Of a DNA stretch of 64,000 bases, positions 1 to 59,408 are shown in pieces. The notes below the pieces were generated by a model. It saw only the letters and a list, made by a program, of their open reading frames with translations, did no database searches and was not told the origin of the DNA. A program made the position numbers and the translations under genes. Each line of letters begins with the position of its first letter. Position 1 is the first letter of the stretch. This DNA is from Candidatus Kaiserbacteria bacterium (GTDB taxonomy: Bacteria > Patescibacteriota > Minisyncoccia > Phycocordibacterales > Phycocordibacteraceae): the NCBI GenBank assembly GCA_023264445.1, contig JAHFMN010000003.1:18421-82420 (forward strand), written 5' to 3'.

Positions 1-780
1 CACGAGATCGAACACAATATTCTTTTCGGAAGTCACCGCATTGAGAAAGCTCTGCAAGAGGCCGAACATATCATATATCGCATTGCCGTAGCTGATGCGC
101 TGCACAGCAAAACCATTCCGCTCGAGCATAGCGCGCAGACTTTCAGGCGAAAAATGAAAGAGATGCCGCGGCACATCAAGATGCAGCCAGTCTGCTGTAA
201 ACAGGCGCGCCTGCCAAGAGCGGTAGTTCGGCACTTCGATGACGAGCATGCCATCTTCCCGTAAGAGCTCAGCTATCCGCTTCAAGTACCGTTCGGGGTC
301 CTGCAGGTGTTCAAACGAGTGCCACGAGGTAATGACGTCAAAAGATGCTTCCGTAAAAGGACAGTTCGGAAGCTCATCTCTACAAATTCTCGCCGCGATG
401 TCCGGGGAGAGATGAGCGCCTTGCGCGCGCTCCGTCCCGTATACATCCCAGCCGAGCGCTGCAGCCGCCTTCAGGAACGAGCCATTTCCGCATCCGACGT
501 CCAGAAGCCGGCCCGGCGGGCGCGCCCAGGCGCGCATGACTTTCCGCATCCAGAGGTAGTTGATGAGGCCGCCCATAGCCCCCTTGCGCGAGCCGTAATA
601 CTGGTCAGCATAGTATGCACCGAGCGCCTCCGAAGTGATGTCCGGCTTCGTAACGCCGAGACCGCATAGAGGGCACTCATAGAGCTTAAACTGGTTGCCA
701 GTCCTGTATTCAGGAGCGTCGTAGCTATACGCGAGATCTGCGCGCAAGCATGCCGGACAACGATAGTGAGCATCCATCAT
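1..780 (-). CDS. Class I SAM-dependent methyltransferase with N-terminal Zn-ribbon (CxxC...CPLC); TylCIII-like sugar C-methyltransferase family. Partial: C-terminus lies beyond the window start.
   Basis: Manual translation of the minus strand from ATG at 780 gives MMDAHYRCPACL...CPLCG...GRLLDVGCGNGSF (SAM motif I) with no stop down to position 1. Absent from the ORF track because it runs off the edge. Paralog of the 9282..10253 gene. Confidence 0.7.
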   Translation of the reverse strand, partial: MMDAHYRCPACLRADLAYSYDAPEYRTGNQFKLYECPLCGLGVTKPDITSEALGAYYADQYYGSRKGAMGGLINYLWMRKVMRAWARPPGRLLDVGCGNGSFLKAAAALGWDVYGTERAQGAHLSPDIAARICRDELPNCPFTEASFDVITSWHSFEHLQDPERYLKRIAELLREDGMLVIEVPNYRSWQARLFTADWLHLDVPRHLFHFSPESLRAMLERNGFAVQRISYGNAIYDMFGLLQSFLNAVTSEKNIVFDLV

Positions 781-2216
781 CGTATGCGCTCAAAGAGCGA
801 ACTTCCCTCCATAAATTCCACCTTGCGGTAGGAAGAAGCGAGCACCGATGCATAGGCCGTTACCACGTATCGATTGCCCTCGTCCATGACGAGGAATTTT
901 GGCAGTTCGTTTAACGGGAGTGACAATGCATTCACACCGTGAACTGGGACGCCCGTCATCGAAAGATAGTGGTATCTGCTTTGAGGCGGCACGAGCGACG
1001 CGACTGCCGGGTCGTTTATGATTCCGACTGTATCGGAGCCGAGATGTGCATTCAGGTACGTAGCCGTTTGGAGAGCGGTATCAGAACGGAATACATGCGA
1101 GCTGAAGAATAGTACATACGCCTGCAACCCCACGAGTCCGGCAATACAGAGAGTCGCGTAGATACTTCTACTGAAAAAGTGGACGGAAATGTTTCGTATG
1201 AACACAGGCAGGAGCATAAGAACGCTCAATTCAAGCGGCATCAGGTACCGCAGCCAGCCGGGCGAGCGCAGGAAATAGGCAAAAGATATGATTCCCAGAA
1301 GAGAGAAGAACAGCACTATTCTTTTCTGGAACGGATCCTCTCCTTTGGCGAAGTACCACCCGACTGCGGATACACAAAGAAGGAAGAAGAAATACAGAAG
1401 GGTCGACTCTAAAGGCGCGTGCAGCACATTTGCTACGACGTTGTCGAGCATGGATGCAGAACCGAAGGGATTCTTATAAAAGCCGAGGAGCGAAGCGAAT
1501 ACTCCGGAAGTGATGGGGCGTGGCAACGTAAGTGCAAGCCAGAGAAAGATCGGCAGCGCGTACCCCATACCGAAGCGAATAAGATTGCCGAAGCGTTTTT
1601 CTTTTTGAAAGAAAAAGATATCAGCCGCTGCAGGAATACACAGCCAGAGATAGAGCGAGGGCTTAGACGCGGCAGCAAGTCCGAGCAGAAGGCCGGACGG
1701 AATGAGCCGGCCTTTGAGAAGGCACCACGCGCCAAGCAAGAGAAAGGTGAACCCCGGTATCTCTCCCGTGACCGTACGCCCGTTCGCAAAGAAAGAAGCG
1801 AATGACAGCACGAGCAAACATCCTAGAACAGCCGATCGCGTATCGAAGAATTTCCGGAGAAAGAGGAAAAGAGTGCCGACACCGGCCACACACCATGCAA
1901 GCATGTAGAACCGCGCCACGAAGAAGCTAAATCCGAACACGGCAAATGCAAACGCGAGCGGAAGCGTCACCGGATACCCATTTGAACCGGCTATCACTAC
2001 TGCGTAGGGAGAATACACGCCCGGAGCGACCGAGATATCTAGAACCTGATGCTCCGCAAAGGTGTGGGCGACTTCAATAGCAAGACCCTCGTCATACCAG
2101 AGTTTCGGCCAGGTGGTGAGCACTGGATACGATATGGCGCAAAAGACGATGGTGGCACCAATAAGTGCCCCGATGTACCACCTATCGGGAAGCGCAAACA
2201 TGCGCTTATAGTACAC
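777..2216 (-). CDS. Polytopic GT-C fold membrane glycosyltransferase (ArnT/PMT, GT39/GT83-like)
   Basis: 479 aa, more than 10 predicted TM segments. N-proximal extracytoplasmic loop has a WYDEG (DE) motif typical of PMT/ArnT-type GT-C enzymes. Immediately downstream of a Dpm1-like GT2. Confidence 0.6.
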   Translation of the reverse strand: MYYKRMFALPDRWYIGALIGATIVFCAISYPVLTTWPKLWYDEGLAIEVAHTFAEHQVLDISVAPGVYSPYAVVIAGSNGYPVTLPLAFAFAVFGFSFFVARFYMLAWCVAGVGTLFLFLRKFFDTRSAVLGCLLVLSFASFFANGRTVTGEIPGFTFLLLGAWCLLKGRLIPSGLLLGLAAASKPSLYLWLCIPAAADIFFFQKEKRFGNLIRFGMGYALPIFLWLALTLPRPITSGVFASLLGFYKNPFGSASMLDNVVANVLHAPLESTLLYFFFLLCVSAVGWYFAKGEDPFQKRIVLFFSLLGIISFAYFLRSPGWLRYLMPLELSVLMLLPVFIRNISVHFFSRSIYATLCIAGLVGLQAYVLFFSSHVFRSDTALQTATYLNAHLGSDTVGIINDPAVASLVPPQSRYHYLSMTGVPVHGVNALSLPLNELPKFLVMDEGNRYVVTAYASVLASSYRKVEFMEGSSLFERIR

Positions 2217-2973
2217 GCCCGGACGAGGAGATCAGAAATCGCGCGTCGGTCCTCACATGTGCACGGTGGAGGAGATAGTTCGCAACCACCATGAGCGTCA
2301 TGAGGCCATACTCTGCGCTTTTGAAAAAGCTCGGCGAGAGCGAATCCTTTTCGTAGCGGGTTGGAATGGGGATCTCGGTCATTCGAAAGCCGCCCGAAGC
2401 GATCTGGGCTATCATTTCAGAATCAAAGACGTAGTTGCTTGAATTCAAATGGAACGGGATAGAGCGGAGCATGCTTCCTGCATATGCTCGGTACCCCGTG
2501 TGGTATTCACTCAATTTCAACCGAAACACTAATTCCTCGAACCGGCTAAGCGCGATATTCGCGACAAAACGCCACCACGACATGCCTCCCGCGCGAGCCG
2601 ACTTCTTGGAGTGCATGCGCGAGCCAAAGCAGACGTCCGCCGTACCGTTCACTATCGGCGCGATGATATCGGGTACGAGCGCTGGATCGTATTGGAAATC
2701 CCCATGCACCATGACGATGACGTCCGCGCCACGTGCGAGCGCTTCCGCATATCCCGTTTTCTGCGAGCCGCCGTAGCCCGTGTTTTTCGGATGCGTGATG
2801 AGTACGATGCCGCTCAAGCTCTCTGCGACGGCGAGCGTCGTATCCGTGCTAGCGTCATTGATGACGATGACTTCATCAACGATATCTCGCGGAACAGCCG
2901 CGACGGTCATCGCAAGCGTTTTTTCCGCATTGTAGGTCGGTATCACGACTACTATTTTCTTATTCTGTAGCAT
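2206..2973 (-). CDS. GT2 polyprenyl-phosphate sugar synthase (Dpm1/GtrB/ArnC-like)
   Basis: MLQNKKIVVVIPTYNAEKT...VIVINDASTDTT...VMVHGDFQYDP: GT-A fold with DxD-type motifs. Start chosen at 2973 (alternative 2988). Confidence 0.8.
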   Translation of the reverse strand: MLQNKKIVVVIPTYNAEKTLAMTVAAVPRDIVDEVIVINDASTDTTLAVAESLSGIVLITHPKNTGYGGSQKTGYAEALARGADVIVMVHGDFQYDPALVPDIIAPIVNGTADVCFGSRMHSKKSARAGGMSWWRFVANIALSRFEELVFRLKLSEYHTGYRAYAGSMLRSIPFHLNSSNYVFDSEMIAQIASGGFRMTEIPIPTRYEKDSLSPSFFKSAEYGLMTLMVVANYLLHRAHVRTDARFLISSSGRVL

Positions 2974-2994
2974 GTTGCAGGCGCCCAAACTATA

Positions 2995-4755
2995 TTATGC
3001 TCGCTGCATCTTGGCAAAATAGGAACCGTGGTTCTTGAGCAGTGATTCAGGCGTTCCGTGCTCGACAATGCGCCCATGGCTCACGACGAGGATAGTATCG
3101 GCCTCGGCGACCGTGGAGGGCCGGTGCGCGATGATGAGCACGGTCACCTTGCCGTGCAGCGCGCGGATGGATTCATGGATGAGCTTTTCGGACTCATGGT
3201 CAAGCGCGCTCGTCGCCTCATCCAGGATGAGAAGTGCCGGGCGGCCCGCAAGGGCACGGGCAAGCGCGATACGCTGACGCTGGCCGCCAGAGAGCATGAC
3301 ACCGCGATCGCCCGTTATCGTTTGGAACCCTTCGGGCAGCCCCATGATGAAGTCATAAATGTTGGCTTGCTTCGCGGCATGCTCAATTTCCTCGGTGGTC
3401 AAGGTGTGATTATAAAATCGGATGTTGTCCTCAATCGTACTGTTGAGGAGAAATACGTCCTGCGACACATAGCCGATATGTCTGCGCCATGTTTCAAGCG
3501 AGATGGACTCGCTTGGTACGCCATCGAGGAGTAGTTCTCCCGCGCTCGGTTTGAAGAGCCGTAAAAGGAGATCCGCGACGGAGGTCTTCCCTGCGCCTGA
3601 AGGCCCGATAAGTCCTACCGTCTCCCCTGCACGTATGGAGAAGTCAATGCCATCTAGCACCGGCTTGCCTTCCGCATAGGCGAATGAGACTCCCTTGAAG
3701 GCGAGTTCTTTTTGGAAACTGAAAGAGGAAGTTCCTTCAGACGACTCGCGATGCAGGTCGAACTGGCGCTTGAATGCCGCGATGTTCTCGACGTACGGCA
3801 CGAGCTCGCTCACTGACTGGAGCGCGACTTGGCCGGACTCAAGATAGGTGAATATTTTTTGTATGAGATAGAGTGATGCCGCAAACGAGATGATGTTAAA
3901 GGAGTCCGAATGATACGTGAGAAGGAAGAGCACCATGGCGAGCATGATGCTGACCGGCTGGAAGAAGCTCGTACCGAGCGAATGCACGAGTGCCTGCCGG
4001 ATGGAGAGCGAGCGTAGGTGGTGGATGTGAGAGCTACCGTCGGTAATAGCGGCACGCTCCGCGCCGGCGGCCTTGATGGACTTCATGCCAATGATGTGTT
4101 CAGTGAGAAATTGCGCAAACTGCTTCTCCACTCCCGCCACCTGCCGCCCGATGCGCTGTGCGCGCCGCAGAAACGGCCGAAGCAAGAAGAGGAGGATGAC
4201 GCCGCCGAGAAGCGTGTAGAGCGTGATGCTTGGCGAGATGTTGATGATGACGAGGAGATACATGAGGAAGCCGCTGAAAGACTGGACGATCTGCGCGATG
4301 GTGCCGAGAAGCCCGCTTGTCTGGTGCACGTCCCGCACGAGCGTATTCTGCAGCGTGCCTATTTTCTGTTTCAACGAGAACGACCAAGAAGAAAGCAGCG
4401 CCCGGCGCAAGACATCCGCGCTTTCCTTACCGAGGAAGTCGGCGCTAATCCATCCGCGGATAAAGCCGAACACGACCACCGAAATCGAACGGAGTATGAA
4501 AAGGATAAGTATGAATCCAAGCAGGTAACGGAACGAAAATGGTATGTGCAGGAAGGCAAATAATCCCTGTATGGTCTGTGAGATGAAATCGGTCGCCGGG
4601 GAGCTCGCTCCGGTGAAGAAGCTTATGAGCGGGATGACGGCATTGATGCCGATACCCTCCAAGAGAGAGCTTATAATGCCAAATATGATGAGCGCCACGA
4701 TATGCCAGCGGTAGGCACGAAACGCCTGCCAGAGCGTCGTGAGGGTGTTTTTCAT
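2995..4755 (-). CDS. ABC exporter, fused permease/ATPase (MsbA/type I exporter-like)
   Basis: Six-TM N-terminal domain then Walker A GPSGAGKTS, signature LSGGQRQRIALARAL and Walker B LLILDEATSALD. Start at MKNTLTTLWQ (4755). Confidence 0.85.
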   Translation of the reverse strand: MKNTLTTLWQAFRAYRWHIVALIIFGIISSLLEGIGINAVIPLISFFTGASSPATDFISQTIQGLFAFLHIPFSFRYLLGFILILFILRSISVVVFGFIRGWISADFLGKESADVLRRALLSSWSFSLKQKIGTLQNTLVRDVHQTSGLLGTIAQIVQSFSGFLMYLLVIINISPSITLYTLLGGVILLFLLRPFLRRAQRIGRQVAGVEKQFAQFLTEHIIGMKSIKAAGAERAAITDGSSHIHHLRSLSIRQALVHSLGTSFFQPVSIMLAMVLFLLTYHSDSFNIISFAASLYLIQKIFTYLESGQVALQSVSELVPYVENIAAFKRQFDLHRESSEGTSSFSFQKELAFKGVSFAYAEGKPVLDGIDFSIRAGETVGLIGPSGAGKTSVADLLLRLFKPSAGELLLDGVPSESISLETWRRHIGYVSQDVFLLNSTIEDNIRFYNHTLTTEEIEHAAKQANIYDFIMGLPEGFQTITGDRGVMLSGGQRQRIALARALAGRPALLILDEATSALDHESEKLIHESIRALHGKVTVLIIAHRPSTVAEADTILVVSHGRIVEHGTPESLLKNHGSYFAKMQRA

Positions 4756-5585: not shown

Positions 5586-6794
5586 CTATTGAACGACAAA
5601 TTCCACGACCTGTACTGCCCTCTCTGCGGCTTCCACTGCCTCCGCGCGCGAGGGTGCAAGCGCTATGACATAGCCCACGCGCGATGGATGATTCACTATT
5701 GCGGGAATTTCATCTCCTACCTGCACCCACGGATCGACTTTTTTGATGAACGGCATATTCCTGGCTTCGGTAAGTCCTCGAATTTCTTTGATGACGCCTG
5801 GGGACGGAAAGAAATACCGCTGCGAAGTTGCCATATGCTTCGTCGGGACAAAACGATTCTGATCAACGCTGTTGCCGACGGTCATATCAATGAGGATATC
5901 CACGATATCAACGCCGGTAGACCACGGTACTTTGTCATAGCAGAAGTTGCCGCCGGAGAGGCGCGCCGCTATTTCAATCACGTACGCCTTGCCGTCGTCG
6001 CCCATTACCATGTCTCCTTTTGCAGGCCCCCAATCAATGCCGAGCGCGCGGACCGCCTTTTCAAACTCTTCTTCAACCAATCTTTTCTGCGCAGGGGGAA
6101 GAACCGTCGGGATATCTCCGCCATCTTCAACGAGATGCGGAGTCGTCTTTTCTACGTTCTCGTAATTGCGGTCAGCAAAGCCGGTGCAATGGAATATATT
6201 GTCGTGCATGATGCCCTCGGTGCTCACTTGGAGCCCGGGAATGTATTGCTCGGCAATCAAGTCTCCGGAATACGAATACTTCCTCGCGTACTCAAATGCC
6301 CACGAGAGGTCCGTATCGGCAGTGATGCGCAGGACGCCGCGTGCGCCGGAATTATCCACCGGTTTCAGCACCACCGGGAAGCCGGCATGTTCGATAAAGG
6401 ACTGGAGATCCGCAAGTGTCCGCACCGATGTGAATTTCGGAATGTTCACCCCGCCGCGTTCAAGTTCTTCTTTCATCTTGAATTTCTGCACGCACGTCTG
6501 CGCGACTGAAAGCGGGATATGCTTGACGCCGAGGTATTCCGCCGCCGCAGAAACGCAATGCGGGATGTCGCTTGCAATGGTCATGACGCCATCAATCTTT
6601 TTCTTGTACCCCTTCAGGAACTCAAGGATAGCCGGTACGTCTCGGGTGCTGACCAGATAGAATTCATCGGCATGCGTGGCACCGGCAGCCTTCGGATTCA
6701 TATCAAACACGACCGTATGTATGCCTTTTTCCTTCGCACGATCAATGGCATTCACTTGTTCTATCCCCGCTCCGAGAATCAGAATGGTTTTCAT
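5586..6794 (-). CDS. ATP-grasp domain ligase
   Basis: 402 aa: MKTILILGAG...VVLKPVDNSGARGV...EQYIPG...YVIEIAARLSGG, the typical ATP-grasp pre-ATP-grasp/central/C-domain layout. Confidence 0.75.
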   Translation of the reverse strand: MKTILILGAGIEQVNAIDRAKEKGIHTVVFDMNPKAAGATHADEFYLVSTRDVPAILEFLKGYKKKIDGVMTIASDIPHCVSAAAEYLGVKHIPLSVAQTCVQKFKMKEELERGGVNIPKFTSVRTLADLQSFIEHAGFPVVLKPVDNSGARGVLRITADTDLSWAFEYARKYSYSGDLIAEQYIPGLQVSTEGIMHDNIFHCTGFADRNYENVEKTTPHLVEDGGDIPTVLPPAQKRLVEEEFEKAVRALGIDWGPAKGDMVMGDDGKAYVIEIAARLSGGNFCYDKVPWSTGVDIVDILIDMTVGNSVDQNRFVPTKHMATSQRYFFPSPGVIKEIRGLTEARNMPFIKKVDPWVQVGDEIPAIVNHPSRVGYVIALAPSRAEAVEAAERAVQVVEFVVQ

Positions 6795-23634: not shown

Positions 23635-24645
23635 TCAGAAATCCTTTACGCCAATCCATAGAGGCACAGGGTCGCCGCCGAGATGCCGCTTGAAGTCCGC
23701 AATGGCGGCCTCTTTCTCCGTACTGCCGGTTTGCCATCCCATATCGTACCGCTCGAACCCTCGGCGTTTGAGCTCCTGCATGATCCGCCACTGAATGAAC
23801 TGGCCGATGCCGCGCAGATTGCGATACTGCGGATCGGTCGCAGCCATGCCATAGGAAGCGCAGCGCTTATATATTGTGACGAGTGCTCCGGAAAGATAGC
23901 CGCCTGCATGCTCCTGACGGAGGAGCGCCAGGAGCGCGTGCCCAGAGCGCACGCGCCCGAGCAGCTCTCGCGTGCGCTCTGGCGACCCTATCGGCCGACC
24001 CGCTGCTAACGCATAGAGGTCGGTGAATGCTGTCCACGCCTCTTCGGTGATCGTATCGCTATCAAAGAAATCTGTCTTGTATCCCTGTTTCTCCGCAAAC
24101 GTAATATCCGACCTATTTCCTTTGGAGACGCGTGAACGGAGTGTGTCCTCGTCGTGGCGCAGGTCCATGATATACGTCACCGTGCTCGTATCGGCATATC
24201 CGAACTGGAGAAAGGGATTAGTGGCGAATGCGGCATCAGTAAGCGGGTCAATGAACATCCTGCTGCGCGCGATGCCGAGCGTGAGCGCGAGTCGATCAAT
24301 CTCTTTCATGCATGCGGCGTAGATTGCTGCCTGTTCACTCGGAGAGAGTGCGTCAGCAAGCGCAGGCGAAGGGTTCGGCAAACTGTGCGTATCGGACGGG
24401 CGTGTATTGACGCTGAAGGCGAATTCCCGTCCCTTCGTAGCGATGAGTGGCTCAATGATGAGAGGCGCGATGGCGACAAGTGTTGCTCCTTCTTTCATGC
24501 CGAAAGAACGGTCCTCGCTACTCTCATCTAGCGCGAGCGCCGCGCGCCGACCGTCGCTTCGGTGACGTATCCAGGCTCCGGGCGACGCGTCGCAGAATGC
24601 ATCCCATTGTGCATCCCCTATATCCTGATGTTGAACGACCTCCAT
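23635..24645 (-). CDS. FemAB-family/GNAT-fold acyl- or aminoacyl-transferase
   Basis: 337 aa from MEVVQHQDIGDAQWDAFCD; two GNAT-like halves typical of FemABX proteins. Start chosen 5 nt after the upstream stop. Confidence 0.5.
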   Translation of the reverse strand: MEVVQHQDIGDAQWDAFCDASPGAWIRHRSDGRRAALALDESSEDRSFGMKEGATLVAIAPLIIEPLIATKGREFAFSVNTRPSDTHSLPNPSPALADALSPSEQAAIYAACMKEIDRLALTLGIARSRMFIDPLTDAAFATNPFLQFGYADTSTVTYIMDLRHDEDTLRSRVSKGNRSDITFAEKQGYKTDFFDSDTITEEAWTAFTDLYALAAGRPIGSPERTRELLGRVRSGHALLALLRQEHAGGYLSGALVTIYKRCASYGMAATDPQYRNLRGIGQFIQWRIMQELKRRGFERYDMGWQTGSTEKEAAIADFKRHLGGDPVPLWIGVKDF

Positions 24646-24649
24646 AGCG

Positions 24650-25558
24650 CTATCCCTGCGTTTTGCGTACGATCTGGATGATTCGCTCGATATCGCGGAC
24701 CGAAAGGGCCTGGTGGCACGGAAGCGCGACACATTCGACGAAGCGAGGATTGAGCATATTGCGATTGACATCGAAGTGATACACACCGCTTTCAAATCCT
24801 GCACGTTCGAGAGCGCGTGCGACCAAAGCATTTTTTGCGCCGCAAAAGAGCGGCACCATCCAAGGCACGACCGTGCTATTTGTCATGAGCTTTTCTTCTT
24901 TTGTGCCCCATACCGCCTTCCGTAGCATTTCGAAATTTCGACGACGGACCTCGACTGCTCCTTTTTTGTACTCAAGGAGAGCGACGGCTTTCGCGGCAGC
25001 CGGACATTTCGTCAGTCGGTCATAGACCGCATAAGCGCGCGCCACCTCCGTGCCGCCCTTACGCAAGCCTTGCATTACCTCGCGTTCGCAGCGCTTGTCG
25101 TGATGACGATACTCGCGTGCGACGAACTGCCGCAGTTTCCTATCTTTTGCGGAGAGCGCGCCGCCGACCGGCGTTGAAAAGAATTTCGAGAGACTCCAGA
25201 GAGCCACTCTGCCGAACGTCCCGACCCGTTTGCCGTTATAGGTGCTATCGATAGTATGCGCACAGTCTTCGATGAGGTATAGCTTGTGTGTGCGGGCAAA
25301 CTTCTCTATCGCTTCCATGTGTTGCGGGAATCCCCACTGGTGGTACACCATAAGCGCTCGGACTTTCTTGTTCATCACCATTGTCGGGAAACAATAGGCA
25401 TGCATTGTCATGTACACCCAGGTGCCGAGCCATTCGGACACGAGCACCTGCGCGCTCTTGTCGTTGAGTACCCTTTCGTGCCGTAAGAAGCGCAGTATGA
25501 CCGCAATAGCCGATTTTCCCGAAAAAATATACTGCGTTCCTTTTGGGAAAGGGCTCAT
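24650..25558 (-). CDS. Short, divergent DegT-family PLP enzyme (lacks about 40 N-terminal residues)
   Basis: LIEDCAHTIDSTYNGKRVGTFGRVALWSLSKFFSTPVGG aligns with the DegT PLP-lysine region. No room for a longer N-terminus because of the upstream methyltransferase. Confidence 0.55.
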   Translation of the reverse strand: MSPFPKGTQYIFSGKSAIAVILRFLRHERVLNDKSAQVLVSEWLGTWVYMTMHAYCFPTMVMNKKVRALMVYHQWGFPQHMEAIEKFARTHKLYLIEDCAHTIDSTYNGKRVGTFGRVALWSLSKFFSTPVGGALSAKDRKLRQFVAREYRHHDKRCEREVMQGLRKGGTEVARAYAVYDRLTKCPAAAKAVALLEYKKGAVEVRRRNFEMLRKAVWGTKEEKLMTNSTVVPWMVPLFCGAKNALVARALERAGFESGVYHFDVNRNMLNPRFVECVALPCHQALSVRDIERIIQIVRKTQG

Positions 25559-53423: not shown

Positions 53424-55190
53424 TCAGGATTCTCCTTTGAGCACGTTGCGGAGCGCATCTTCGGGAACTTCAAACGGTTTCTTTTCTTCCGCTGCTGGCT
53501 TTGGCATTTCCTGCTTTCTGCTTTCCACTTTCTGCTCTTTAGGTGGTGCCTCCTGCTTGTTTTTCTGAAGCACCTCGGCAAGTGCTCCCTTGAGCGACTG
53601 CTGCTGCTGTTCTTGCTTCTTTTCCTTTTCTGCACCAGTCTTCGCGGCCATAGTGCGCAAGATTGACTTCAGGTCTTCAGCGCTCTTTGATGGCGGCGCT
53701 GGACGATTGATTGGAGGGCGGGGTACAAAATCACGACGCTCCTCCCGCTCAGGCGAACGCGGTACAGAAGGGCGGTAGGGCGGAACTTCGGGAGCTCTCT
53801 GCGGAACACTTGGCATCTGGGCTGCAAACGGCTTTGGCGCGGGAGGCAAGGGCGCCGGTTTCCGCTTCATCCGCGCATCGCGTGGCGCTTCGGACGCGGC
53901 GCTTGCGGCAAGCTCGTCGATAATCGATTTCTCGATGCTTGCGCGCGGTGCGGTAAACTGCTTGCGCGAAGAGGCAATGACCTGCTCCCTATAAGAAACA
54001 GGTGGCGCCTCTATGGGCGGGATCGTCACCGCGGAAAATGGAGCTGACCCGACGCCGTCTATCATGAGCGTCAGGTATATCTGCCGGCGGTCGAGACCGA
54101 CCACGTCCTCCTTTGTGAATCGGGGCATGAAAATAGTTTCAAGCACCTCGGCATCGAACGGTCCGACGCGAAAGACGACTGTGGTGCCGACGTTGCCGAA
54201 CACGGCATCGCGCACCTCTTCTTCCATCTGCTCGATGTATTGGTGCGCGATGACAAGGTTCAGTTTATATTTGCGAGCTTCGGAAAGTATTTCTGCGAAC
54301 GTTTCGTTCGCGAAGTTCTGGAACTCGTCAACATAAAAATAGAGATGCGGAAGTCGCGTAAGCTCGGGTGCGGCAAGGTTTGCCCTACTCATCGCCGCGA
54401 GAAAGATGCGCGTTGTAAGCATCGAGCCCAAGAGGCGCATATTGGTCTCGCCGACGAGTCCTTTGGAGAGATTGATGATGAGGATCTTCTTTTCGTCCAT
54501 CATCGTACGGATGTCAAAGGAAGATTTCGGCTGACCGATGATGTTCCGGATGAGCGGATTGCCGGTGAACTGCCCGATTTTGTTCTGGATGGCAGGGGTC
54601 GCTTCTTGGGTATACCGGTCGCCGTAATTTGCGAATTCCTTTGTCCAGAAATCCTTTACGACCGGGTCCTTCACGTTATCCACGACCTTTGTTCGGTACT
54701 CCTTATCGGTATACATGCGATTCACACCAAGTAGAGTTGCATCCGGATACTCGAGGAGGGCAAGGAGCGTATTCGTAAGGATGTATTCCATGCGGGCGCT
54801 CCACGCGTCTTCCCATATCTTCTTGAAGGTCGCCATGAGGCCGCTTACCACGAGGTGGCGTTTGTCATAGCCGACGTCCTCCATCACATTGAAGGCAATA
54901 GGGTGCTCGAGATCGAAGGGAGCGAAGTAGACGACATCTTTTATTCGGTTTTCGGGAATGTATTCGAGGAGTCGCTCAACGGTGCCGCCATGCGGGTCGA
55001 TAAAGGCGAGCCCTTCGCCATTCCTGATATCCTGAATCGCCATATTCTCGAGCAAGGTGGACTTGCCCATACCGGTCTTGCCGATGACATACATGTGGCG
55101 ATCGCGGTCTTTTGACTTGATGCCGAAAGGGACATACTTTCCCCGCGCGTCAGTCGCCGCGAAGTAAGTCACGCGCTCGGGATTCTCCAT
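53424..55190 (-). CDS. P-loop NTPase of the TraD/TraG/VirD4 coupling-protein (AAA_10/DUF87) type with disordered Pro/Lys/Glu-rich C-terminal tail
   Basis: Walker A VIGKTGMGKST, Walker B LYFYVDEFQNF; C-terminal ~170 aa low complexity (PAPLPPAPKP...EKEKKQEQQQQ). Confidence 0.6.
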   Translation of the reverse strand: MENPERVTYFAATDARGKYVPFGIKSKDRDRHMYVIGKTGMGKSTLLENMAIQDIRNGEGLAFIDPHGGTVERLLEYIPENRIKDVVYFAPFDLEHPIAFNVMEDVGYDKRHLVVSGLMATFKKIWEDAWSARMEYILTNTLLALLEYPDATLLGVNRMYTDKEYRTKVVDNVKDPVVKDFWTKEFANYGDRYTQEATPAIQNKIGQFTGNPLIRNIIGQPKSSFDIRTMMDEKKILIINLSKGLVGETNMRLLGSMLTTRIFLAAMSRANLAAPELTRLPHLYFYVDEFQNFANETFAEILSEARKYKLNLVIAHQYIEQMEEEVRDAVFGNVGTTVVFRVGPFDAEVLETIFMPRFTKEDVVGLDRRQIYLTLMIDGVGSAPFSAVTIPPIEAPPVSYREQVIASSRKQFTAPRASIEKSIIDELAASAASEAPRDARMKRKPAPLPPAPKPFAAQMPSVPQRAPEVPPYRPSVPRSPEREERRDFVPRPPINRPAPPSKSAEDLKSILRTMAAKTGAEKEKKQEQQQQSLKGALAEVLQKNKQEAPPKEQKVESRKQEMPKPAAEEKKPFEVPEDALRNVLKGES

Positions 55191-55472: not shown

Positions 55473-56138
55473 TCAGGGTGTCACGATGACGACAAACTCA
55501 CCCCGTATCGTGTCTGGATGCGAAGCGAAATGGGCAGACACGTCTTGCGGCGTGCCCGAAACAACCTCTTCATGAATCTTCGTAAGCTCGCGGGCGACGG
55601 TAATGCGCGATACGCCTTCCAATTCTTTCAGCAGCTTCTCTATACGGTGCGGTGACTCATAGAGCACCACCGGTATTTCGCTCACAACAATCTTCTTTAA
55701 CGCTGTCTGACGACCCTTCTTGTGGGGCAGGAATCCAAGAAAGGTAAAAGCGGTAGCATCCAGTCCGGCGATAGAAAGCGCAGTCGCGAGCGCAGAAGGA
55801 CCCGGTATCGCTTCAATCTTTGCGTCAGGCAATTCCTTGCGTACATGTGCAACAAGACGCGCACCAGGGTCAGAGATGCCTGGGGTGCCCGCGTCGCTTA
55901 CGAACGCGACACGCTCGCCATTCTCAAGGCGAGCGATGACCTCATCAGCCTTCTTGATTTCCTTCGCCGCATCAAGCCGCTGGAGCGGCTTTGCAATGGA
56001 GTAGCGCGCAAGAAGCTTCGAGATGACGCGTGTGTCTTCGGCATATATCACATCGCATTCTTTCAGCGTCCGCAAAGCACGGAGCGTAATATCCTCCAAA
56101 TTTCCTATCGGCGTCGCGACGATCGAGAGCGTTCCCAT
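55473..56138 (-). CDS. rsmI: 16S rRNA (cytidine1402-2'-O)-methyltransferase
   Basis: MGTLSIVATPIGNLEDITLRA...DAGTPGISDPG, canonical RsmI/tetrapyrrole-methylase fold. Confidence 0.9.
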   Translation of the reverse strand: MGTLSIVATPIGNLEDITLRALRTLKECDVIYAEDTRVISKLLARYSIAKPLQRLDAAKEIKKADEVIARLENGERVAFVSDAGTPGISDPGARLVAHVRKELPDAKIEAIPGPSALATALSIAGLDATAFTFLGFLPHKKGRQTALKKIVVSEIPVVLYESPHRIEKLLKELEGVSRITVARELTKIHEEVVSGTPQDVSAHFASHPDTIRGEFVVIVTP

Positions 56139-56139
56139 A

Positions 56140-57408
56140 TTATGTTGTCACTAACTCATCAGCGACTTTATAGATGTCGCCGGCACCCATCGTTATCACT
56201 GTGTCGCCCTCCCTCGCTTCGCTTAGAGCTTTTAGAATTGCATCAAATGAGAGAGCTTGTGTACTCGTACCGGTCGCGCGAATGCGCTCGGCAAGTATCT
56301 CGCTCGAGATAGAACCATCGTCTGCCTCGCGGGCGGCATAGATGGGGGCAATGTAGACTTGATCAGCATCGCTGAAAGCAGCTGCGAATTCATCAAGCAG
56401 ATCTCGTGTGCGGCTGTAGAGGTGGGGATGGAAGGCAACGATGATGTTTCCTTTTGCTTGTGCGCGAAGCGCCTTGAGCGTTTCTCGCACGGCCGTCGGG
56501 TGGTGTGCATAGTCGTCGTACACGTCTGCCCCATTTTTATTTTTTCCTTTGTATTCAAATCGGCGCCACGTGCCGTGGAAATCAGCGAGAGACTCGGCGA
56601 TGGTCGCATCTGAAATCATTGGGAGCACGGCACGGGCGGCGGAGGCAGCCGCTCGTGCATTATTCTGATTAAACTCTCCCGGCAAACGGAGGTCGTATGC
56701 GGTCTCCTTGGTGTAATCGACCACGCGCGCTTTTGCGCCCGCCAAAAGGGAAGTGATGTTTCTATTATTTTGGTCCGTTACGATTGCTCCGTCTGCGGGC
56801 ACCCGCTCAATCGCTTTCTTAAATGTTTCCTGAAGGGAAGTGAGAGAGGGGAAATAGTCGGTATGGTCCCATTCGAGATTCGTGATAACTAAAACCTTCG
56901 GCGATAATTCGAGCAAATGGTCCTTGTATTCGCACGCTTCTACCACAAGCATGTTTGCATCTCCATGAAGATAGTTCGATTGGAAGTCCTTCACGATCGA
57001 GCCGATAATTGCGGTCTCGTTTGCCCCAGCATCGTGGAGAATCTTGGCGAGCATTCCTGTCGTCGTGGTCTTGCCGTGAGTCCCAGCGACTGCAATCGTA
57101 TACCTATCTGCCGATACCTTTCCGAGCATTGCAAAATACGACATTTGTGGTGTCCCCAGTTCGGCTGCGCGAACGCGTTCAGAGTTATCCACAGGTACCG
57201 CATCGCTGTAGACGACCATCTCTGCGTCGGCTGGAACATTTTCTGCCTTCTGCCCGATAGACACCTGTATTCCCTTCTTTTCAAGCAGATCGGTAGTAGG
57301 GCTTGCTTCCCTATCCGATCCGGTTACGGATGACCCGTGATCAATAAAATATTGCGCGAGCGCGCTCATCCCTATCCCCCCGATGCCGATGAAGTAGATT
57401 TTCTTCAT
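56140..57408 (-). CDS. murC: UDP-N-acetylmuramate--L-alanine ligase
   Basis: IYFIGIGGIGMSALA...AVAGTHGKTTTT...; 422 aa. Confidence 0.9.
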   Translation of the reverse strand: MKKIYFIGIGGIGMSALAQYFIDHGSSVTGSDREASPTTDLLEKKGIQVSIGQKAENVPADAEMVVYSDAVPVDNSERVRAAELGTPQMSYFAMLGKVSADRYTIAVAGTHGKTTTTGMLAKILHDAGANETAIIGSIVKDFQSNYLHGDANMLVVEACEYKDHLLELSPKVLVITNLEWDHTDYFPSLTSLQETFKKAIERVPADGAIVTDQNNRNITSLLAGAKARVVDYTKETAYDLRLPGEFNQNNARAAASAARAVLPMISDATIAESLADFHGTWRRFEYKGKNKNGADVYDDYAHHPTAVRETLKALRAQAKGNIIVAFHPHLYSRTRDLLDEFAAAFSDADQVYIAPIYAAREADDGSISSEILAERIRATGTSTQALSFDAILKALSEAREGDTVITMGAGDIYKVADELVTT

Positions 57409-57986
57409 GGATAATTGGGCAGCGTATCGGGTCGATAGTCGAAATGGAAATACTCACGTTTCGTACCGATACGGAAACCGTTAAGCATCATTAATTTACC
57501 GAGATAGTCTTGTAATTCCTGGCATTGCTGTGACCCTTCGTCTTTTTTATTTTTATAAAAGTCGATGAAGAGCGCTGGTACACCATCTTCGCTACGCCGC
57601 ATATGAATTTCTTTATTTTCTTTGGTATCCCAGATCGCTACGTCTACCGAAAGACCAAGAGCGTGGGGCATTGTATTCATATTTAGGATGGAGTCTGTTA
57701 CTTCTTTACCGTATTTCTCCACGCGCCGCTGGTATACGATTTTGTAGATTTCCTCCGATCGATACCCTTCTTTTATGTATAAACGCCATCCTTTTTCTTG
57801 GAGTTTTTGGTCTATCGCCGCCAGTTTATCAATAATTTGCTTGCTCACCCGAACTCGATCATCTTTAAGGCCAGCTTGCATAATATCCTCCTTAGTAAGG
57901 CCGTGTGTAGCGTATTTATGCCAATAAAAATTGCTACCGAGGAGGCCATAGTCGTCTATATATACGAGGTCGGTAGGCGTGGTCAT
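57405..57986 (-). CDS. M15-family zinc metallopeptidase (VanX/D-Ala-D-Ala dipeptidase or LD-carboxypeptidase-like)
   Basis: HALGLSVD (HxxGxAxD) motif and 193 aa size. GC content clearly lower (about 43-45%) than the flanking ~60%. Confidence 0.6.
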   Translation of the reverse strand: MTTPTDLVYIDDYGLLGSNFYWHKYATHGLTKEDIMQAGLKDDRVRVSKQIIDKLAAIDQKLQEKGWRLYIKEGYRSEEIYKIVYQRRVEKYGKEVTDSILNMNTMPHALGLSVDVAIWDTKENKEIHMRRSEDGVPALFIDFYKNKKDEGSQQCQELQDYLGKLMMLNGFRIGTKREYFHFDYRPDTLPNYP

Positions 57987-59293
57987 AGCTTCCCTACTAT
58001 CGCATTGAACTGGTCGCCGCGATCATACTCGTTCTTGAACATACCAAAGGAGGCGAAGGCGGGAGAAAAGAGAATGGTGTCGCCCAACTCGGCAGAGGAG
58101 AAAGCTTCAGCTATGGCTTTATCAAGAGTATCAAAGACAGAGGCGCCGGGAATAAATTCAAGTACGCGACTCGTACCAGTCCCCGCGAGCAGGATAGTGC
58201 GCTTCACCCCCCCAAGCTTTGCGAGAAGCGCATTCATATCAAGGCCCTTATCTGCGCCGCCCATGATAAGTACCGTTCGCGCTGGGTCGAGTGCCGCGAG
58301 CGCGGCAAGGGTCGCTTCGGGCGTGGTCGCAGTGGTGTCGTTGTAAATTTTGACCCCATTCACTTCCCTCACGAGTTCGAGCCGGCCGGGGACGCCCTTA
58401 AATGATTCAAGCGTCTTACGGCTTATCGAGTCGTCAATATCGAGTGTGCGAGCGACAGCGAGCGCGAGGGCAGCATTGTAGCGGTTATGGAGGCCCGGGA
58501 CACGAAGCGTCCACGTGTCAGGAAGCTTCGTCTCGTCTACCACGAGCGTTTTTGACTCTATCTGCTCTCCGTATCTATCAATGACTGTCGGCGCGCATTG
58601 TTTACCCAAGATGAGTGTGTCTTCTGGCTTCTGGTATAAAAAGATATTCGCCTTGTCAGCAAGATATACGTCAATATCGTTTTTATAATAGTTCAAATGG
58701 TCGGGATACAGTGTTGTGAAGACTGCAATATGCGGACTCATCCTCGCCTCACCGAAGCCCTGGCACTGCCACGAATCCAGCTCGAGAACTGCGACGTGTT
58801 GGGAAGTCGTTTCTGGCAAAAGAGAAAGTGTAGAGACGCCGCGCACATTTCCGCCAAGCAATACCTTCTTCCCTGCCCCTTTCAAGATGGCATGAATCAT
58901 GTGCGCTACGGTTGACTTGCCGCGGGTACCCGTCACGCCGATTATCGGAATCCCAGAAATTTCTGCGAAGAGGTCCGCGCTCATGCGTACCGGTATCTCA
59001 TGCTTCTTTGCCTCCGCGATATAGGGAGAATCAAGCGGCACGCCGGCCGCTTTCAGAATGAGATCGCGATTATTAAAATCTTCCAGCCGGTGCTCGCCAA
59101 GAACGAACGTGATGTTTGTAAACTGTTCAAGCTGGGCAACCGATTCAGCGAGCTCCTCGCGCGACTTCAAGTCAGTCACAATAAGCTCCGCTCCGCACTC
59201 CGCGAGATAAGCGGCATCGCCTACGCCTCGACCCAAAAGGCCGAGTCCCATGATAGTTATCTTTTTGCCCCGAAAATGAGATGAGGCGTCCAT
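57983..59293 (-). CDS. murD: UDP-N-acetylmuramoylalanine--D-glutamate ligase
   Basis: MDASSHFRGKKITIMGLGLLGRGVG...GVTGTRGKST...; start set at 59293 because the longer ORF-track start would overlap tRNA-Ile. Confidence 0.88.
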   Translation of the reverse strand: MDASSHFRGKKITIMGLGLLGRGVGDAAYLAECGAELIVTDLKSREELAESVAQLEQFTNITFVLGEHRLEDFNNRDLILKAAGVPLDSPYIAEAKKHEIPVRMSADLFAEISGIPIIGVTGTRGKSTVAHMIHAILKGAGKKVLLGGNVRGVSTLSLLPETTSQHVAVLELDSWQCQGFGEARMSPHIAVFTTLYPDHLNYYKNDIDVYLADKANIFLYQKPEDTLILGKQCAPTVIDRYGEQIESKTLVVDETKLPDTWTLRVPGLHNRYNAALALAVARTLDIDDSISRKTLESFKGVPGRLELVREVNGVKIYNDTTATTPEATLAALAALDPARTVLIMGGADKGLDMNALLAKLGGVKRTILLAGTGTSRVLEFIPGASVFDTLDKAIAEAFSSAELGDTILFSPAFASFGMFKNEYDRGDQFNAIVGKL

Positions 59294-59298
59294 GTGGG

Positions 59299-59371
59299 TG
59301 CACGCTCTAGGAGTCGAACCTAGGACCGCCCGAGTATCAGTCGGGTGCTCTACCAACTGAGCTAAGCGTGC
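59299..59371 (-). tRNA. tRNA-Ile (anticodon GAT)
   Basis: Manual fold: acceptor GCACGCT/AGCGTGC, D-arm GCTC-AGTTGGTA-GAGC, anticodon arm CCCGA-CTGATAC-TCGGG (GAT), T-arm CTAGG-TTCGACT-CCTAG, discriminator A. CCA not encoded. Confidence 0.9.
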
Positions 59372-59408
59372 ATCTGTGGATATTATCAAAAAACCTCTTT
59401 AGTTTCCA

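Follow-up and report, generated by a model that had tools for sequence, protein, structure and literature searches.

Most of what is known of VanX-type dipeptidases concerns glycopeptide resistance or starvation. VanX itself, from Enterococcus faecium Tn1546 (PDB 1r44, MEROPS M15D, PF01427), is a cytoplasmic protein of 202 amino acids (aa) encoded in the vanHAX resistance operon. DdpX of E. coli is a chromosomal D-Ala-D-Ala dipeptidase of the stationary phase, which belongs to a dipeptide permease operon, is linked to starvation and has no role in glycopeptide resistance. Other members of the M15 group include VanXYc, VanXYg, VanY and LdcB (M15B, PF02557), which act on pentapeptide or tetrapeptide stems, and the phage L-Ala-D-Glu endolysins Ply500 (PDB 2vo9) and LysB4 (M15C). 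Here we describe a gene predicted to encode a VanX-fold zinc peptidase (hereafter the M15 gene and the M15 protein) that lies between murD and murC in a Candidatus Kaiserbacteria bacterium, on a stretch of 64,000 nucleotides (nt) from contig JAHFMN010000003.1 (assembly GCA_023264445.1, positions 18,421 to 82,420). This whole stretch is referred to as the window, and all coordinates for it are counted from its first letter.

In our reading, to which we give a probability of about 60%, the M15 protein is a soluble, cytoplasmic VanX-fold zinc dipeptidase encoded by a long-standing gene of the mur block, and it most likely acts on D-Ala-D-Ala or on a D-aminoacyl dipeptide much like it. The likeness to VanX extends to size (193 against 202 aa) and predicted cytoplasmic location, and the equivalents of VanX R71, H116, D123, D142, E181 and H184 are all conserved in the family. 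The differences lie in the N-terminal motif (GSNFYWHKY here, KYATWDNF in VanX), which the profiles cannot align, and in the setting, which is a housekeeping murD-murC block rather than a vanHAX resistance operon, with no linked ligase, dehydrogenase or two-component regulator at the window locus. Non-resistance VanX homologues such as DdpX may offer the closest functional analogy. DdpX is likened here by description and not by sequence, and the M15 gene is instead linked to Mur ligase genes at this locus and, in other lineages, to genes for CorA and a PF06821 hydrolase. The VanXY, VanY and LdcB enzymes are set apart by curated thresholds that the M15 protein does not reach, by a fold clearly less similar to it than that of VanX, and by the lack of an anchor or signal peptide in the M15 protein. 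The phage endolysins differ in that the M15 protein has no cell-wall-binding domain and no phage context, and in that its N- and C-terminal elements are shared only with VanX.

In the literature searched we found neither this family nor an M15 gene within a mur operon of the Candidate Phyla Radiation (CPR) described. The Joint Genome Institute (JGI) already names many family members 'D-alanyl-D-alanine dipeptidase', and one is named 'M15 family metallopeptidase domain-containing protein' by NCBI.

Predicted fold and family assignment

An AlphaFold2 model of the M15 protein, built on 56 homologues, has a predicted local distance difference test score of 93.9. When the model was searched with Foldseek, VanX was matched at E 4e-9 with a template modelling (TM) score of 0.67, and all other matches had TM scores of 0.52 or lower. 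The predicted structure shows the LAS fold, and its similarity to VanX covers the whole chain, including elements outside the LAS core. Two sequence profiles were compared with the PDB: a narrow one of 56 close homologues (A1) and a broad one of 43 sequences that are 22-66% identical to the window protein (A2). The broad profile placed VanX first (E 2.2e-13, 53 bits), followed by Ply500 (2vo9, E 2.7e-6) and LdcB (E 2.5e-5). The narrow profile placed LdcB at the top and missed VanX, and a single-sequence phmmer search gave a marginal match to LdcB only (E ~0.07). The hhalign comparison of A1 with VanX gave a weak match, at a probability of 58% and E 1e-4; it put D142 in the wrong place but otherwise agreed with the A2 alignment, which is preferred here. 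Assignment to M15B (VanY/LdcB) was considered and rejected, as the broad profile, matching the fold searches, reversed the ranking of the narrow profile and put VanX first.

By predicted fold and broad profile, the protein is an M15 zinc peptidase with VanX as its closest solved relative. A preliminary description of this DNA, made from the sequence alone, had named the gene a VanX-like M15 peptidase, and both the Foldseek match and the A2 profile bear this out. The comparison with models of the M15 subfamilies gave a divided answer, in that VanX is best by fold and by A2 while every curated VanX, VanY and vanXY model is either below threshold or unmatched. Neither a membrane segment nor a signal peptide was found in the M15 protein (maximum over a 19-residue Kyte-Doolittle window 1.0; grand average of hydropathy -0.72), and because it has no hydrophobic segment it is probably cytoplasmic, like VanX and unlike VanY and LdcB.

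Active-site residues

In VanX, R71 stabilises the transition state, D142 binds the amino group of the substrate, and S114 and Tyr21 line the pocket. The M15/LAS zinc triad is defined as H-x(3-6)-D ... H (PMC4087270). A catalytic glutamate lies three residues ahead of the last histidine (ExxH), in place of the H-x-H of other LAS enzymes. The M15 protein has H108-x6-D115 and H181 in the places of the triad, and a candidate catalytic glutamate, E178, three residues before H181. The relevant codons are as follows.

57642..57665, minus strand: codons of H108 to D115 (HALGLSVD), two predicted zinc ligands equivalent to VanX H116 and D123 (codons read directly; A2 alignment)
57444..57455, minus strand: codons of E178-Y-F-H181, predicted catalytic glutamate and third zinc ligand, equivalent to VanX E181 and H184 (A2 alignment)
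57759..57761, minus strand: codon of R76, equivalent to VanX R71 (A2 alignment)
57585..57587, minus strand: codon of D134, equivalent to VanX D142 (A2 profile alignment)

Among the 56 close homologues of A1, R76, H108, D115, E178 and H181 are invariant and D134 is conserved in at least 90%. Across the broader A2 set, H108 remains invariant, R76, D115, E178 and H181 are conserved in at least 90%, and D134 in at least 70%. The motif had earlier been given as HxxGxAxD; it is present, with a serine in place of the alanine (HxxGxSxD, H108-A-L-G-L-S-V-D115). Conserved tyrosines also occur in the N-terminal segment (Y21, at least 90% in A2; Y25, at least 90% in A1), which neither profile method aligned to VanX.

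Conservation of the gene and its place in the mur block

The exact M15 protein sequence is found on metagenome contigs only. Its 222 homologues at 57-77% identity all come from metagenomes or metagenome-assembled genomes (MAGs). Those with an organism name are without exception Patescibacteria MAGs, with the labels Paceibacterota, Kaiserbacteria, Vogelbacteria, Parcubacteria or Minisyncoccota. Of 1.84 billion representatives, those of 105 clusters at 50% identity belong to the family, and 69 of these reach E 1e-10 or better. It is a small, divergent M15 family, so far seen only in Patescibacteria.

The neighbourhood was compared across 67 homologue-bearing loci from GTDB genomes and JGI metagenomes, which are given L-numbers here. 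In 11 other loci (L005, L007, L008, L009, L025, L027, L028, L029, L030, L041 and L058) the order is again murD-M15-murC, or murD-M15 where the contig ends, and murC-M15 is found in two Colwellbacteria loci (L017 and L020). A tRNA-Ile gene lies upstream of the block in L005, L028, L029 and L041, accompanied in L005, L028 and L041 by a 16S rRNA gene, and the synteny with rsmI is kept in L008, L009 and L041. The M15 gene is an old, conserved resident of the mur block in one Paceibacteria lineage, and not a recent foreign insertion.

It is also under purifying selection and more conserved than murC and murD, because the M15 protein is 57-71% identical where MurD and MurC drop to 42-50%. In L028 and L029, for instance, MurD and MurC are 45-51% identical to those of the window, and the M15 protein 62-63%. 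Pairwise identities of the M15 protein correlate with those of MurD or MurC at r 0.52-0.64, compared with 0.85 between MurD and MurC. Some blocks carry an additional gene between the M15 gene and murC. In L009 this is a glutamate-racemase-like gene (TIGR00067, 131 bits, just below the cutoff of 146.65), in L041 a weak tblastn match (27% identity) to the L009 racemase stands in the same position, and in L005 it is a NUDIX gene. The variants in L009 and L041 stay with the cell-wall theme.

Further features were noted among the relatives. One Paceibacteria MAG (L013) has two M15 paralogues 3.3 kb apart (2092-2676 and 5986-6579), one of which has the gene of a HAD hydrolase on one side and that of an Ldh_2-family dehydrogenase on the other. 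The homologue of a Doudnabacteria locus (L018, 6001-6574) is broken up by tblastn into residues 1-36 and 35-192, which lie in different frames; a frameshift may be the cause, or an error in the assembly. A group II intron domain match lies upstream of tRNA-Ile in L029 (134-220), and L005 has a 2.3-kb, ORF-containing gap between the 16S rRNA gene and tRNA-Ile (307-3914).

Gene organisation at the locus

The M15 gene is part of a same-strand block that runs from a 16S rRNA gene to rsmI.

57405..57986, minus strand: M15 gene, VanX-fold zinc peptidase (predicted), ATG start, 193 aa, predicted cytoplasmic
57983..59293, minus strand: murD, UDP-N-acetylmuramoyl (MurNAc)-L-Ala:D-Glu ligase, upstream of the M15 gene, 436 aa (TIGR01087, 325 bits, cutoff 212)
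56140..57408, minus strand: murC, UDP-MurNAc:L-Ala ligase, downstream of the M15 gene, 422 aa (TIGR01082, 395 bits, cutoff 335)
55473..56138, minus strand: rsmI, 16S rRNA C1402 2'-O-methyltransferase, next after murC (TIGR00096, 214.5 bits, cutoff 167.9)
59295..59372, minus strand: tRNA-Ile(GAU), upstream of murD, its encoded CCA ending 1 nt before the murD start codon
59638..61105, minus strand: 16S rRNA gene, at the head of the block (Rfam RF00177, 1352 bits)
57983..57986, minus strand: ATGA overlap of the murD stop (TGA) and the M15 start (ATG), TCAT on the plus strand
57405..57408, minus strand: ATGA overlap of the M15 stop (TGA) and the murC start (ATG), TCAT on the plus strand

The earlier placement of the gene between murD and murC is confirmed by matches above cutoff for both ligases, and the ATGA-type overlaps claimed with both neighbours are present at both junctions. 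Overlaps of 4 nt were seen again in L005, L008 and L009. Direct reading of the sequence shows a purine-rich GGGAAG ahead of the M15 start and no Shine-Dalgarno-like sequence ahead of murC. The murD open reading frame (ORF) as listed is overlong, its first 32 codons being translated tRNA-Ile; the true start is the ATG at 59293, and a murD of 436 aa is also called on ENA contigs. The canonical division and cell wall (dcw) cluster has ftsW and murG in the space from murD to murC, with ddl coming after murC. Here, those positions are occupied by the M15 gene and rsmI. The other neighbours of the block in the window are a 73-aa ORF and a VirD4-like ATPase.

Several features of the block concern its RNA genes. 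There is no space for a ribosome-binding site between the CCA of tRNA-Ile and the murD ATG (59291-59372), and murD would be effectively leaderless once the 3' end of the tRNA is processed; relatives differ in having an ORF of ~190 aa between tRNA-Ile and murD. The 16S rRNA gene is followed by tRNA-Ile and murD-M15-murC-rsmI and not by 23S, an unlinked rRNA arrangement that is conserved in several Paceibacteria relatives (L005, L028 and L041). The rsmI product methylates 16S rRNA, and rsmI shares the block with the 16S rRNA gene.

Base composition and the question of foreign origin

The M15 gene has a GC content of 42.8%, the lowest of the 57 ORFs of at least 80 aa in the window, where the other ORFs range from 49.0 to 58.5% (murD 53.3%, murC 52.1%) and the window as a whole is 54.1%. 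The drop of ~11 points coincides with the M15 ORF. The preliminary description had put the gene at about 43-45% against a background of about 60%; its value for the gene was right and its background too high. At third codon positions (GC3) the gene has 44.3%, compared with a mean of 61% in the other ORFs. The amino-acid composition of the protein alone, with the codon usage of the other 47 ORFs, predicts a GC content of 47.9%, such that about half of the low GC comes from a composition rich in Lys, Tyr, Ile, Asn, Asp and Phe. The remaining 5 points lie in third positions, where GC is 44% and 60% was expected; the z score relative to the other 47 ORFs is -2.9. By windowed GC and codon-usage calculation, the deviation is therefore real.

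Low GC had been taken to suggest horizontal acquisition, with a prophage endolysin remnant as the alternative, and the M15 gene being the lowest-GC ORF of the window, with a GC3 deficit of z = -2.9, speaks for a recent arrival of one kind or the other. The only moderate tracking of MurD and MurC identities by the M15 protein points the same way, as an in-place replacement from a lower-GC Paceibacteria relative is possible. The dip is, however, shared: the M15 gene is below both murD and murC in GC in 10 of 10 syntenic loci, with GC3 of 0.255 in L028 and L030 and 0.297 in L029 where the flanking murD and murC have ~0.50. Over 44 loci with flanking DNA of sufficient length, the GC of the M15 gene differs from that of its flanks by a mean of -3.9 points, being lower in 40 of them, and its GC3 is lower in 31. 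Because of this, the low GC is a property of the M15 family and not the mark of a recent arrival. Horizontal acquisition was rejected on the family-wide dip and on synteny kept across deeply diverged relatives, the block being common to 11 other loci, among them lineages with MurD and MurC at only 43-50% identity. Prophage origin was likewise rejected, since no PHROG family matched at E 0.01 or better, viral folds in BFVD gave a best E of 1.5e-4 and TM scores of 0.37-0.48 (against 0.67 for VanX), and the genes that flank the M15 gene are housekeeping genes, with no phage or mobile-element genes among them. All 222 homologues being metagenomic, with every named one from Patescibacteria, also stands against an outside source, and we regard either form of foreign origin as highly improbable. 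The persistent GC3 deficit in higher-GC genomes could reflect either in-place replacement by copies that came from relatives of lower GC, or selection on the codons of a middle gene whose translation is coupled to that of its neighbours.

Proposed function and alternative explanations

The proposed course of events begins with the operon-like block itself, in which the 16S rRNA gene, tRNA-Ile, murD, the M15 gene, murC and rsmI would be co-transcribed. Translation of the M15 gene would be coupled to that of murD and murC at the ATGA overlaps, and the protein presumably made in fixed proportion with MurD and MurC. The mechanism would be as in VanX, with a zinc ion held by H108, D115 and H181, a water molecule activated by E178, and the tetrahedral intermediate stabilised by R76. 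D134, together with D115, may anchor a small dipeptide by its free amino group within a closed, capped pocket. With D-Ala-D-Ala or a near analogue among the D-aminoacyl dipeptides as its most likely substrate, the enzyme would tune or salvage the pool of D-Ala and D-Ala-D-Ala that feeds the synthesis of peptidoglycan precursors. That it would edit D-Ala-D-Ala or muropeptide pools, as the preliminary description proposed, is a reasonable supposition.

A number of observations weigh against this proposal. Hydrolysis of D-Ala-D-Ala looks counterproductive for a cell that needs this dipeptide for MurF, unless the cell regulates the flux or builds an alternative terminus. None of the curated models accepts the M15 protein: Pfam VanY (PF02557) scores 23 bits against a gathering score of 25, the VanX family PF01427 gives no match, and NCBIfam vanXY (NF000380) reaches 26.1 bits against a cutoff of 250. 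Among the 56 relatives, 22 have weak PF01427 matches (best E 8e-6), and weak VanY matches occur in 45. Identity to VanX is only 13-15%. The position of VanX S114 is Met106 in the M15 protein according to the profile alignments, and because of this substitution and of N-terminal motifs that cannot be aligned, the predicted pocket is similar and not identical to that of VanX. Family-invariant residues that VanX lacks (N19, K72, E73, Y81, R88, N102, R130 and Q159) could change the specificity. Most other lineages have the M15 gene away from mur genes, and the peptidoglycan link is therefore lineage-specific. A second context recurs in ~15 loci (L012, L015, L042, L043, L046, L053, L062 and others), where CorA, a Mg2+ transporter that is not always present, is followed by the M15 gene and then by a PF06821 (YdeN-like) serine hydrolase of unknown function. 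Further neighbours of the M15 gene elsewhere are TatD, NUDIX, HD, HAD, EamA, BipA, DUF4385 and Ldh_2.

The ligase that makes D-Ala-D-Ala was also looked for. No canonical ddl was found in the 64-kb window by Pfam labels and scans of the ORFs and by tblastn with E. coli DdlB as the query, nor, by tblastn with the same query, within 5-6 kb of the M15 gene in the 67 related loci. The preliminary description had likewise reported no ddl in the window, which holds but is uninformative for 64 kb of a genome of ~1 Mb. The only ddl-like signal in the window is a LAL-type ATP-grasp gene at 5586-6794 on the minus strand (LAL_C2, 74 bits), which is not a canonical Ddl, its Dala_Dala_lig_C match being sub-threshold (21.8 bits against 24). 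This gene adjoins a thiamine pyrophosphate (TPP) enzyme and a short-chain dehydrogenase/reductase in the glycan cluster described below. Neighbours of ~300-330 aa at other loci were considered as ddl or murB and rejected, being CorA, TatD, EamA, Ldh_2 or unknown.

Other substrates can be imagined for the same protein. The M15 gene lies exactly between the genes for the L-Ala-adding and the D-Glu-adding ligase, and a dipeptidase for some other peptidoglycan-derived substrate, such as L-Ala-D-Glu or a D-amino-acid dipeptide derived from a host, would let an auxotrophic episymbiont salvage L-Ala and D-Glu to feed MurC and MurD. The racemase-like gene of L009, an alternative source of D-Glu in the same slot, fits with this (in L041 there is only the weak match already mentioned), as does the inclusion of L-Ala-D-Glu peptidases in the M15 group, with Ply500 the second-best PDB match of the broad profile. 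The change of VanX S114 to Met and the extra invariant R88 and R130, which could bind a second carboxylate, point in the same direction, and in other lineages the neighbours are small-molecule 'clean-up' hydrolases (NUDIX, HD, HAD and TatD). However, no transporter for such peptides is linked to the M15 gene and the L-Ala-D-Glu assignment is drawn purely from context, which leaves this explanation rather unlikely. A cytoplasmic D,D-carboxypeptidase or pentapeptidase similar to VanXY, VanY or DdcY could instead trim the terminal D-Ala off UDP-MurNAc-pentapeptide, so that tetrapeptides are exported, for example for cross-linking by L,D-transpeptidases. Its attractions are the frequency of weak VanY matches in the family, the first rank of LdcB with the narrow profile, a vanXY model as the only NCBIfam match, and an operon shared with ligases of UDP-MurNAc-peptides. 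Yet the full-length match to VanX, which is a strict dipeptidase and has a capped pocket, is clearly better than any other by fold and broad profile, the VanY and vanXY scores all fall below threshold, and with neither a membrane anchor nor a hydrophobic N-terminus the protein does not group with VanY and LdcB; we consider such an activity unlikely.

It is also conceivable that the protein is a D-Ala-D-Ala dipeptidase of the resistance type, paired with a D-Ala-D-Lac- or D-Ala-D-Ser-forming ligase encoded at some other place in the genome and conferring intrinsic insensitivity to glycopeptides. Aad of Lactobacillus plantarum is a precedent, since it removes D-Ala-D-Ala in an intrinsically glycopeptide-insensitive organism. 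The VanX-like fold and residues, the constitutive, operon-embedded position of the gene and the L013 paralogue that adjoins an Ldh_2-family dehydrogenase agree with this, although Ldh_2 is not the VanH family. A cultured member of the Patescibacteria was purified in vancomycin medium (PMC12281837), which is a lead only, as vancomycin tolerance has many possible causes and the isolate is not shown to carry the M15 gene. The neighbours at the window locus are murD, murC and rsmI rather than those of a van resistance operon, and neither a van-type ligase nor any ddl was found in the window or within the 5-6 kb searched at the 67 loci, so that a resistance role seems quite unlikely. The reading that we prefer remains that of a cytoplasmic dipeptidase for D-Ala-D-Ala or a close analogue, resident in the mur block.

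Other features of the window

Most of the window (~780-52000, mostly minus strand) is taken up by one very large cluster for the biosynthesis of glycans or surface polysaccharides. It contains many glycosyltransferases of families GT4 and GT2, NeuB, two pyruvyl transferases, DegT-type aminotransferases, epimerases and dehydratases, as well as a radical SAM/B12 enzyme, methyltransferases, PMT_2 proteins, an ATP-binding cassette (ABC) exporter and a FemAB-like acetyltransferase (23635-24831). A VirD4/TraG-like coupling ATPase is encoded a few genes downstream of murC (53424-55190, minus strand). It is much more conserved than its neighbours, being 84-91% identical in relatives (L008, 7099-8364; L041, 7543-8421) with MurC and MurD at 58-73%. 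The type IV secretion system of Patescibacteria is the subject of a paper (PMC12102498).

Significance

The M15 protein is a readily classifiable enzyme, and what is unusual about it is the persistently low GC3 of its gene and the placement in a mur operon. Because public pipelines (JGI) already label its relatives as D-Ala-D-Ala dipeptidases, the surprise to a specialist should be modest. Against the background of VanX-type enzymes known from resistance and starvation, a divergent VanX-fold family is here a fixed part of the operon for the Mur ligases in one Paceibacteria clade.

A bolder proposal, which we put forward as improbable, is that the M15 family, rather than a scavenger of D-Ala-D-Ala, is a dedicated, operon-encoded editor or salvage enzyme of the Paceibacteria precursor pathway, which would either (a) split L-Ala-D-Glu-type peptides from a host for use by MurC and MurD, or (b) remove D-Ala-D-Ala in favour of an alternative stem terminus. 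If form (b) were true, a large branch of the CPR would be intrinsically insensitive to glycopeptides. If either form were true, a VanX-fold enzyme would belong to the core housekeeping machinery with which a major uncultured lineage makes its peptidoglycan, and its gene would be transcribed from a 16S rRNA/tRNA-Ile unit, under unusual codon constraints. The substrate of the M15 protein, once determined, would show how ultra-small, auxotrophic CPR bacteria manage their pools of D-amino acids and peptidoglycan precursors, and might bear on the tolerance of some CPR bacteria to the cell-wall antibiotics used in their isolation.

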